A DNA stretch of 6,739 nt from Escherichia coli (GTDB lineage: Bacteria > Pseudomonadota > Gammaproteobacteria > Enterobacterales > Enterobacteriaceae): the NCBI RefSeq assembly GCF_003334255.1, contig NZ_QOWU01000099.1; one strand, given 5' to 3'. Positions within the stretch are counted from its first letter, which is position 1. Each line of letters starts with the position of its first letter. Shown here one piece after another: positions 4,266 through 6,167 of this stretch. The notes beneath the pieces are model-generated. The model saw only the letters and a list, made by a program, of their open reading frames with translations, did not search any database and was not told where the DNA came from. The position numbers and the translations under genes were made by a program.

Positions 4266-5196
4266 GGCAGCCCGTGCCTTGTGGGCAGGGACAGGTATCA
4301 CTGGTGGGATAAGGCTGTCTGATTGGTATTATAAATATAAGAAGTTATCAGAGAGTAACGTAAAGGATTTGCCAGAATAACCTAAGAGAGTAAATCTCTC
4401 CGGTAACAGAGCGCTGTGAAGCATTCTGTATCAGAGTGCAAATACATGAACGCTGATGCGTAAAATCAGCAGTGACACGCCAGCTCCCCCTGTGCCCATT
4501 CCTGTATAAGACATGAACTGAGCGTATTAATGCTCCTGCCCTGAGACTGAGCCGGTGAGTGAGGGGCTGAGAAATCCCTCTTGACACTGCTCTAAACCAG
4601 AAATACTTCCCCGGTTGTTGCGGTGCGTCCGGATCCCCGATAACGGAACACTAAGGCTGTATTGCGGGACACCAGGTAAGTGGCAGCCCGTAATACGTCA
4701 GGAGACGCGGGAAAAGTGAATTCCCACACGCGTTATAAACTTACCCTAGCGGAGCTGGAAGCCTTTAACTCTGCCGTTGACAACCGGCTGGCAGAACTAA
4801 CCATGAACAAACTTTACGATCGCGTTCCGGCTTCTGTCCGGAAATATGTCACCTGAACGTTCGGTAATCACAGCGGTATTGCGCCAGGTGTTATCTGCTC
4901 TGTGTGATTCTTTTTAGGGTTTCTCAGATTGTTAAAAGCTGAATATGTTCCTGTTGTCGGGAACCAGGATAATACAGGGAACATTAAGCGGTATAGCGAC
5001 AACAAAGCATTCGAAATCAAAAGGGAATGGTGTACGGAGTTGTGGGCAGTAATGGGCCGATTTTCGGGCATTACCGATCTCTGTTGAGGTTTTCTCGTAT
5101 TTGCCGGGGATCCGGTGCGTTACTGTCTGGCACAGCAAACGCAGAGGTGGCGGGGCGCTCTGCTCCGCTGATTCCGGATAATCCCTCCCCTGTAAC

Positions 5197-5394
5197 CTAC
5201 GGCAACAGTACAAATACACTGACGCCTGAAACGACAGCCAGAATCAGCACAGGCAGTAACGTCAGTAGACAAAGCAGACGATCGGTATTCCGGTAATAAT
5301 CGAAGGGATCTGCTGACACGTAGCCCGGGCAACATTCCGTATTATGAGGGATGGCGTTATCACAATCCCTGCACACCGTTTTGCGTATCACCAT
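5197..5394 (-). CDS. candidate small protein, 65 aa, Cys-rich N-terminus and hydrophobic C-terminal segment
   Basis: Track ORF 5197..5397 (-). Minus-strand sequence upstream reads TTGTGAGGAGGACGTG-ATG: a strong AGGAGG core 5 nt before ATG 5394. Product MVIRKTVCRDCDNAIPHNTECCPGYVSADPFDYYRNTDRLLCLLTLLPVLILAVVSGVSVFVLLP has CxxC-x9-CC followed by a ~25-residue hydrophobic stretch. It overlaps other short ORFs in a messy region, so the coding status is uncertain. Confidence 0.3.
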   Translation of the reverse strand: MVIRKTVCRDCDNAIPHNTECCPGYVSADPFDYYRNTDRLLCLLTLLPVLILAVVSGVSVFVLLP

Positions 5395-5488
5395 CACGTC
5401 CTCCTCACAATCTTATCCGTAACCGGCTTTTTGCATTAAAAAAACAACGCTGAAAATTCAGCCGTCAGTCCGGAGACGACAGTCGGGT

Positions 5489-5509
5489 TATCTCAGAGTG
5501 CCTGAGATA
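5489..5509. promoter_or_regulatory. 8-bp inverted repeat TATCTCAG-agtgc-CTGAGATA in the intergenic region upstream of the yagK/yfjJ-like gene
   Basis: 5489-5496 is the exact reverse complement of 5502-5509, with a 5-bp spacer. It sits about 90 bp upstream of ATG 5598 and about 95 bp upstream of the candidate divergent small ORF start at 5394. Short enough to occur by chance; position is what makes it operator-like. Confidence 0.3.
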
Positions 5510-5597
5510 TTGCCTGGTTGGAGATCACTTCAGGGACTCTGCGCATTTTTTACGGCGTGGTTAATCCGTATGAACGAAACCATACGGAGATTTAACC

Positions 5598-6167
5598 ATG
5601 ACCTACAAATGCAACCCCTTCTGGCAGCAACGTATTCGTGAGACGGTGCTGCACGCACTGGATGTTCATCCCCGTCTGACGGCATTGCGGGTTGATCTGC
5701 GTCTCCCGGATGTACCGGCAGCAACGGACGCGGCTGTGATATCCCGCTTCATCAATGCCCTGAAAGCCCGAATCGACGCTTACCAGAAACGTAAGCATCG
5801 GGAAGATAAACGCGTGCATTCCTCGACCCTGCATTACGCCTGGGCCAGGGAGTTCGGGGAGCTTAAAGGCAAAAAACACTATCAACTGCTGCTGCTGGTC
5901 AACCGGGATACCTGGTGTCGTGCAGGCGATTACCGCGCTCCGGGGTCACTGGCCGGGATGATTAAACAGGCCTGGTGCAGTGCCCTGGGGGTGGATGCCG
6001 GATGTTATGCCACGCTGGTGCATTTTCCGGTCAGGCCGGCGGTGTGGCTGGAACGCGATGATGATGCTGGTTTACGGGATATGCTGAAGCGTGCTGACTA
6101 TCTCGCGAAAGAGTACACCAAAGTCAACGGTACCGGTGAGCGCAATTTTGGCTGTAGCCGGAGTTGA
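5598..6167 (+). CDS. YagK/YfjJ-family protein (inovirus Gp2-like), 189 aa
   Basis: ORF 5598..6167 with GGAG at 5586-5589 and an 8-nt spacer to the ATG. Motifs RVDLRLP, VISRFINALKARI, HYAWAREF, HYQLLLLVNRD, LVHFP and the C-terminal NFGCS match what I recall of E. coli YagK/YfjJ proteins. Family call is from memory, not a search. Confidence 0.75.
   Translation: MTYKCNPFWQQRIRETVLHALDVHPRLTALRVDLRLPDVPAATDAAVISRFINALKARIDAYQKRKHREDKRVHSSTLHYAWAREFGELKGKKHYQLLLLVNRDTWCRAGDYRAPGSLAGMIKQAWCSALGVDAGCYATLVHFPVRPAVWLERDDDAGLRDMLKRADYLAKEYTKVNGTGERNFGCSRS

Follow-up and report, generated by a model that had tools for sequence, protein, structure and literature searches.

An uncharacterised island gene of Escherichia coli encodes a predicted tail-anchored protein with a zinc-ribbon-like head

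A 6,739 nucleotide (nt) stretch of Escherichia coli DNA (contig NZ_QOWU01000099.1 of assembly GCF_003334255.1), referred to in its full length as the window, carries a 65 codon open reading frame (ORF) on its minus strand at positions 5197-5394. This small ORF is a genuine E. coli island gene, already annotated but uncharacterised and unnamed: its RefSeq label, given by the Prokaryotic Genome Annotation Pipeline (PGAP), is 'hypothetical protein', the UniProt entry for the exact window protein (A0A192EUY0) reads 'Uncharacterized protein', and some sources name its paralogues 'zinc-ribbon domain-containing protein'. The reading we favour, with moderate confidence, is that a chromosomal integrative island carries it as an accessory gene, which is translated into a tail-anchored protein with a zinc-ribbon-derived cytoplasmic head that would act as a membrane tether or adaptor. 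The length of the ORF is by itself ordinary, as the window holds 42 ORFs of at least 40 amino acids (aa), and the AGGAGG hexamer in front of it is by itself not beyond chance, with three in the window against 2.5 expected. What raises the ORF above chance is the combination of a conserved frame, a conserved Shine-Dalgarno (SD) sequence, conserved synteny and purifying selection. Its parts are as follows.

5197-5394, minus strand: coding sequence (CDS) of the 65 aa protein, including the TAG stop codon at 5197-5199 (translation, PGAP frame and comparative evidence)
5400-5405, minus strand: SD sequence AGGAGG, 5 nt (ACGTG) on the 5' side of the ATG
5278-5394, minus strand: codons 1-39, a polar, Cys-rich head with C8, C11, H17, C21, C22 and a juxtamembrane YYRNTDR motif (zinc-ribbon-like consensus and selection)
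5200-5277, minus strand: codons 40-65, a predicted C-terminal hydrophobic membrane anchor (Kyte-Doolittle (KD) hydropathy, AlphaFold2 and replacement in the class-B copies described below)

The translated product, MVIRKTVCRDCDNAIPHNTECCPGYVSADPFDYYRNTDRLLCLLTLLPVLILAVVSGVSVFVLLP, has Cys residues at positions 8, 11, 21, 22 and 42, the last of them within the tail, and a His at position 17, giving the pattern C8-x2-C11-x9-C21C22. A first-pass annotation, made from the sequence alone, had described an ORF of this extent, with AGGAGG 5 nt before its ATG, an N terminus of the form CxxC-x9-CC and a hydrophobic tail of about 25 residues; all of these are present, and the core of the ribosome binding site is kept across related copies. 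An alternative GTG start at 5397 lies only 2 nt from the SD sequence, and PGAP likewise selects the ATG.

A 301 nt query over the ORF detected related DNA in 3,498 of 5,426 complete E. coli genomes, at a median of two and up to six places per genome, almost all of them chromosomal. At least 1000 public contigs encode the exact window protein, and 704 encode a sister variant. Twelve related loci, sampled across the range of identity, share a constant gene order of an AlpA-like helix-turn-helix (HTH) protein (minus strand), an hha paralogue (plus), the small ORF (minus), a YagK-like gene (plus) and two zinc-ribbon proteins (plus), with the hha paralogue sometimes truncated or missing. PGAP calls the small ORF at 11 of these 12 loci, in one case flagged as frameshifted, and calls no gene at locus L013. 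Between one and six copies are present in around two thirds of complete E. coli genomes, yet the gene is unnamed, belongs to no Pfam family and is absent from the literature; the strains sampled include pathogenic lineages whose islands are of the hha2/hha3 type.

The first-pass annotation had tied the case for a gene to its frame being kept in related sequences. Ten of the 13 sampled copies are intact, and across these the annotated frame is the only one free of stop codons; the other five are mostly interrupted, one antisense frame being open in class-B copies only. The insertions and deletions (indels) seen among intact copies are in frame, comprising a 3 nt deletion in L012 and a 10-residue gap in the proteins P0026 and P0027. 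The SD core, GAGG, is retained in all 12 related copies, including those in which the ATG has become ATC, where the next codon, GTG, could serve as the start. In L007 and L008 (both at 2548-2745) the CDS annotated by PGAP begins at the ATC, and the adjacent GTG stands 6-9 nt from a GAGGGAG motif; the GTG is the more plausible start in these two loci.

The gene is a mosaic. At the DNA level the head is its most divergent segment, being 72-90% identical to the window among divergent copies in a block alignment, and identity over the tail and 3' flank is 89-96% among class-A copies. For class B (L011-L014, for instance L014 2417-2617), identity falls to only around 48% on the 3' side of codon 39, the junction at codon 39/40 coinciding with the domain boundary. 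The class-B tails nonetheless maintain an open frame and their hydrophobicity: both versions of the gene encode 65-66 aa, and mean KD values of the tail are alike in the two classes, at 2.8-3.0 (2.99 in class B). Because two near-unrelated hydrophobic tails join the same head at codon 39/40, the tail appears to be a generic anchor, which suggests that the soluble head is the constrained, working part of the protein and the helix a replaceable one. Three classes of head allele (GY-VSADPFD, SC-ASTASSG and YC-GSVDPFG) are found in combination with the two tail classes.

Deep comparisons reveal purifying selection on the N-terminal 39 codons, as seen from the proportions of synonymous (pS) and nonsynonymous (pN) sites that differ between copies.

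L007 versus L014, codons 1-39 (9 synonymous and 3 nonsynonymous changes): pS 0.36, pN 0.03, pN/pS 0.09, Fisher p 3.5e-5
Window versus L014, codons 1-39: pS 0.59, pN 0.14, pN/pS 0.23, Fisher p 1.4e-5
L005 versus L014, codons 1-39: pS 0.59, pN 0.15, pN/pS 0.26, Fisher p 1.9e-5

In the same test the other two frames of the sense strand give poorer scores, and the plus strand frames carry stop codons in most copies. For the variable loop (codons 12-33) positive selection finds no support, the counts being too small and the ratios ranging from 0.3 to 1.6.

The consensus of the aligned family members, MVIRKKKCRDCGNAITHNTvCCPYCGSVDPFGYYRNTDR, corresponds to CxxCG-x9-CCPYCG, a two-knuckle zinc ribbon, followed by YYRNTDR. 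Residues C8, C11, H17, C21 and C22 are invariant or nearly so. Residue 25, by contrast with these, differs among allele groups and therefore falls within a variable stretch at 24-33; besides the window allele, groups with CCPGF, CCPCY, CCPYF, CCPGC and CCPSC are found. A profile of the family, searched against 1.84 billion representatives, retrieved fragments and variants of the same family as well as generic zinc-ribbon proteins at E values of 1e-4 to 1e-3. All of the matches from outside the family have the form CxxC...CPxCG, and three of them (P0065, the 67 aa P0066 and P0067) consist of a ribbon and a membrane helix; P0066, for example, shares the ribbon-then-helix layout of the small protein. 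The family consensus K-K-C-x2-C-G-x9-C-C-P-Y-C-G likewise resembles generic zinc ribbons such as Zn_Ribbon_1 (PF13240), Zn_ribbon_3 (PF13248), DZR (PF12773) and UPF0547 (PF10571). Unlike these, the family has an invariant H17-N18-T19, the doubled C21C22 and YYRNTDR, and the window allele is without the second Cys of the second knuckle, no Pfam model matching significantly. The head is most likely derived from a zinc ribbon, judging from this motif-level resemblance. In the AlphaFold2 model of a canonical paralogue, short beta bridges join residues 6-7 to 14-15 and residue 21 to 28, at predicted local distance difference test (pLDDT) scores of 61-69 only, against 49-57 in the window copy.

Other collections gave little. 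NCBIfam contained no significant match and PADLOC no match to the window protein; PHROGs also had none for it, a canonical paralogue weakly matching three PHROGs of unknown function, and the best hit of a sequence search of the PDB, with an E value of 0.65, was not significant. Two candidate matches were rejected: the CCPGW family putative bacteriocin model NF047792, which scored 12.5 bits (E = 0.11) against a cut-off of 80 bits, and TraP, which was far below its cut-off.

Residues 1-39 are polar, 11 of them charged, with no N-terminal hydrophobic segment or signal. The hydrophobic tail that follows, L40-L64, reaches a best 19-residue KD mean of 2.82 (residues 46-64) and a crude Hessa sum of -1.9 kcal/mol. 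One residue follows the hydrophobic core in the window protein, which ends in ...FVLLP, and across alleles this extension comprises between zero and eight uncharged residues. AlphaFold2 predicts a helix over residues 30-63 (window copy) or 33-63, with pLDDT of 74-85 across the blocks at 41-60 in the window protein. Canonical heads have a net charge of +4 to +5, with R35 and R39 lying N-terminal to the helix. The thiols of metal-binding cysteines suit the reducing environment of the cytoplasm. The protein is predicted to be a tail-anchored inner membrane protein with its N terminus in the cytoplasm and next to nothing in the periplasm; the tail-anchored or single-pass architecture that had been suggested at first pass thus fits both the KD profile and the modelled helix, with almost nothing past the latter.

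Tail-anchored proteins of the E. coli inner membrane include ElaB, YqjD, YgaM, DjlC and Flk, and tail-anchored and very small membrane proteins such as YohP are reportedly inserted post-translationally in this species. The small protein resembles both types in having a single helix at the extreme C terminus, a polar head predicted to be cytoplasmic and no signal peptide. The heads of the ElaB/YqjD/YgaM/DjlC/Flk type are ribosome-binding or J-domain structures without sequence kinship to the Cys-rich ribbon found here.

In the model that we favour, the gene forms part of an island module with the order YfjI, AlpA, hha paralogue, small gene, YagK/YfjJ-like gene and zinc-ribbon proteins. Its product would place a zinc-ribbon-derived head of about 39 residues in the cytoplasm, with residues 40-64 predicted to cross the membrane. 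The head, with C8, C11, H17-N18-T19, C21-C22-P23 and the juxtamembrane YYRNTDR, would be the working part and the helix merely a generic anchor, such that a cytoplasmic partner, either protein or nucleic acid, would be held at or recruited to the membrane. The protein would then be a small adaptor or a regulator of the anti-factor type, rather than a membrane-damaging peptide, and an accessory of an island silenced by H-NS and Hha. A parallel is provided by the ZAS-type membrane-anchored zinc-binding anti-sigma factors, which carry an H-x3-C-x2-C motif. They follow the same logic as that proposed here, a small cytoplasmic zinc head on one helix sequestering a partner; the differences are that the metal motif is not the same, that neither an adjacent sigma factor gene nor an extracytoplasmic sensing domain is present, and that homology was not detected. 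Were the tether model true, a simple adaptor composed of a zinc ribbon and an anchor would join the known bacterial small membrane proteins, and the poorly understood YfjI/AlpA/YagK island module would acquire its first functional handle.

An extension of this model, which we regard as improbable, is that these are a lineage-restricted family of modular tail-anchored zinc-ribbon proteins serving as membrane-tethered sensors or anti-factors of the island, which might, for example, sequester an incoming phage component or the Rep-like YagK/YfjJ protein at the membrane. An arms race would then account for the exchange of anchors, for the variability of the loop at 24-33 and for the alternative sets of ligands (C4, as against a CCHC-like set of C8, C11, H17 and C22).

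A number of results weigh against the tether reading, and several of them bear on a different account, in which the family is functional now, or once was, and the window allele is a decaying or neutral relic carried clonally with the island. In the window allele the second knuckle reads CCPGY: Cys25, the fourth Cys of the ribbon, is gone, and the full set of four is found in the canonical paralogues but not in the window copy. Its head has a net charge of -1, down from approximately +4, and a low-confidence AlphaFold2 fold, at pLDDT 49-63; the mean over the whole protein is 62.8, against 69.9 for the canonical paralogue, with the heads of the two at 49-69. Pfam gave no significant match, the E value being 0.29 for the window protein (UPF0547) and 2e-3 (Zn_ribbon_3) for the best of 17 members, a canonical paralogue, with none at or below 1e-3. 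Compared with its nearest alleles the window head appears relaxed, with pN/pS of 0.58-1.0, rising to around 1.6 over codons 12-33 against L004, and the window copy may be drifting. The neighbouring hha paralogue of the window is itself truncated, and frameshifted forms occur among close relatives, such as P0001 and the P0007 type. We nevertheless consider the relic account unlikely. The frame, the start codon and the perfect SD sequence are all intact in the window; the identical protein and its sister variant are as widespread as described above; C8, C11, H17, C21, C22 and YYRNTDR are all kept; and the comparison of the window with L014 still gives a pN/pS of 0.23. Furthermore, several independent allele groups (GY, GF, CY and YF) lack Cys25, which may therefore be dispensable. 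The window allele may also be a weakened variant, in which metal binding, if it is kept, would need C8, C11 and C22 together with either H17 or C21; a CCHC-like site, C8-x2-C11-x5-H17-x4-C22, can be put forward as an alternative ligand set purely as speculation. The remaining points against the tether reading are of other kinds. There is no homology between the small protein and the two downstream zinc-ribbon proteins (hhalign probabilities of 7.6% and 0.4%), a promoter scan of 4600-5700 found no sigma-70 consensus match for either of the divergent genes, and the literature was found to contain no mention of the small gene. The ratio of nonsynonymous to synonymous substitution rates (dN/dS) over the whole gene is just 0.45-0.7, a value that is uninformative alone because the gene is mosaic, and which the split at codon 39/40 resolves. 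Three of the 13 sampled copies (L009, L010 and L013) are disrupted, with the YagK-like neighbour intact in all of them. Finally, we infer the adaptor role from the pattern of selection alone, and its partner is hypothetical. Even were the gene only a drifting accessory, the ORF would still be real, the toxin reading discussed next unsupported, and the intergenic structure probably a property of its neighbour.

The frequency of disruption could alternatively reflect a cost of expression, and this is one of the arguments for a membrane-damaging peptide, whether a type I-like toxin, a holin or lysis factor or an abortive infection effector, with the helix permeabilising the inner membrane. The product is also small, preceded by a strong SD sequence and endowed with a very hydrophobic helix, and it is encoded on a horizontally acquired island; the duplicated island regions of strain 042, including an hha paralogue, are silenced by H-NS/Hha (PMC6480617). 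Small membrane toxins of prophages are well known, and the Hok/Gef type resembles the small gene in having small hydrophobic products encoded on mobile elements, in which Cys residues can matter (PMC12648545). However, the architecture here is the reverse of that in Hok/Gef and the majority of type I toxins, whose helix is N-terminal and whose C terminus is polar (PMC12648545). A charged C-terminal tail, as would befit a holin, is absent, and no endolysin or spanin gene lies nearby. Nor does the window contain an Rfam antisense RNA or toxin leader, or a promoter-like site antisense to the ORF. The window protein matches nothing in PADLOC or PHROGs, and the three weak PHROG matches of its paralogue are not holin families; more broadly, PADLOC-DB has no match for the small protein, the class-B paralogue, the YagK-like protein or the zinc-ribbon neighbours, the AlpA-like protein having weak generic HTH matches only. 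Selection is strongest on the soluble head, whereas the sequence of the helix is freely exchanged. The toxin, lysis or holin role raised at first pass is therefore unsupported, and we judge it quite unlikely. A last alternative, that there is no gene at all and the frame stays open by chance, within conserved DNA that serves the YagK/YfjJ-like gene as regulatory or leader sequence, draws on the high conservation and structure of the adjoining intergenic DNA and on the abundance of ORFs of similar size in the window. It is highly improbable, given that the excess of synonymous change lies in exactly the annotated frame (p around 1e-5), that stops interrupt the other five frames bar the one antisense frame open in class B, that the zinc-ribbon signature is apparent at the level of the motif and the tail stays hydrophobic even where its DNA is non-homologous, and that the SD sequence is conserved.

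The sequences between the small gene and its divergent neighbour, and that neighbour itself, include the following features.

5395-5597, no strand assigned: divergent intergenic region between the small gene and the YagK-like gene (conservation)
5489-5509, no strand assigned: perfect 8 nt palindrome, TATCTCAG-5 nt-CTGAGATA, perfect in the window and L001 only
5494-5609, plus strand: two predicted hairpins, at 5494-5541 (12 bp, then a T-run) and at 5547-5609, the latter pairing the SD sequence and ATG of the YagK-like gene (folding compared with shuffles)
5598-6167, plus strand: YagK/YfjJ 'inovirus Gp2 family' protein, 189 aa (PGAP; Pfam PF11726, YagK_YfjJ_C, on relatives; phrog_25019)

Identity of the intergenic region to that of the window is 84-97% across 11 divergent copies and 100% in the near-identical L001, so that it is conserved more tightly than are synonymous sites in the ORF head (pS 0.22-0.59). 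It must hold the promoters of both genes. The first-pass annotation had also pointed to a palindrome shared by the two genes: this exists at 5489-5509, but its conservation as a palindrome does not hold, as it is perfect only in the lineage of the window and L001. Most other copies have TATCACAG...CTGAGACA (6 of 8), and the changes are non-compensatory. On the minus strand, a pair of terminator-like hairpins at 5449-5480 was rejected, being at chance level (two found, 1.6 expected) and not kept in the L007 class.

The plus strand of 5480-5610 folds with a minimum free energy of -45.6 kcal/mol (z = -4.1), none of 200 shuffles being as good, and indels in the hairpin region are confined to loops. 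Only one compensatory pair was observed across the hairpins, with a covariation term of -0.06, the variation being too low for real support. For the small gene, whose leader lies on the minus strand, shuffled sequences fold as well as the leader itself (z = +0.3). Because the plus strand folds far beyond shuffled sequences and the minus strand leader is unremarkable, the conserved structure is probably to be assigned to the YagK-like gene, as its leader, and not to the small gene. Candidate roles for it are those of an attenuator, of a leader that controls translation, or of an origin or operator at which the Rep-like YagK protein would act. Rfam has no family anywhere in the window at E values up to 1.

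As the first-pass annotation had it, the small gene is divergent from a yagK/yfjJ-like gene, and the two adjoin one another in all 12 E. coli loci. Islands of this type bear the hha2/hha3 paralogues found in pathogenic E. coli. Mutants of hha and hns show derepression of two of the three duplicated island regions in strain 042, hha2 being part of one of the two (PMC6480617); neither that paper nor its supplementary tables for the strain refer to the small gene. In the window the hha paralogue is a 58 aa ORF at 4680-4856 (plus strand), which is missing its N-terminal third and aligns to residues 24-70 of the 70 aa island Hha of L004 with 91% identity. The small gene was not found by tblastn in the surroundings of K-12 yfjJ and yagK (two 14 kb segments), which may explain the silence of small-protein surveys in K-12.

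Orthologues of the YagK-like protein, 60-66% identical, are found in Klebsiella, Salmonella, Serratia and Edwardsiella (L018, L019, L020 and L021), where the gene order is different, with AlpA downstream of the YagK-like gene, and no ORF encoding a CxxC motif and a hydrophobic tail is present in the 800 nt upstream of it in these four genera. Since it is missing beside YagK-like orthologues elsewhere, the small gene is an addition of the Escherichia lineage and not an obligatory partner of the YagK module; on this distribution it is a lineage-restricted accessory gene. The arrangement across genera suggests a conserved Rep-like module without the small membrane gene. The four orthologues have weak matches to Pfam PF23343 (REP_ORF2-G2P), and in Klebsiella and Serratia Zn_ribbon_11/DUF7828 proteins are also encoded downstream of the YagK-like gene.

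Outside these chromosomes, one 20-residue fragment was the only match in a phage collection, and a plasmid collection yielded eight, several in records of 0.8-4.9 Mb that resemble chromosomes. When species-representative genomes were scanned with the family profile, the sole match was a 683 nt contig of Paenibacillus tengchongensis, NZ_WACP01000054.1 (L015). This contig has low coverage, and its product matches the E. coli protein over residues 1-41 without a difference (100% identity); the match is almost certainly the result of E. coli contamination of the Paenibacillus assembly.

Two further ORFs lie upstream of the YagK-like gene in other genera. In Serratia (L020, 2178-2315, minus strand), an uncalled 45 aa ORF in the same relative position as the small gene has a hydrophobic C-terminal tail (KD 2.1) without a CxxC motif, and could be either a positional analogue or chance. 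In Edwardsiella (L021, 1914-2126, plus strand), a called gene of 70 aa is a pure tandem repeat of the (LEL)n type (MVVLLELLELLELL...), and probably represents a repeat array, not a genuine protein.

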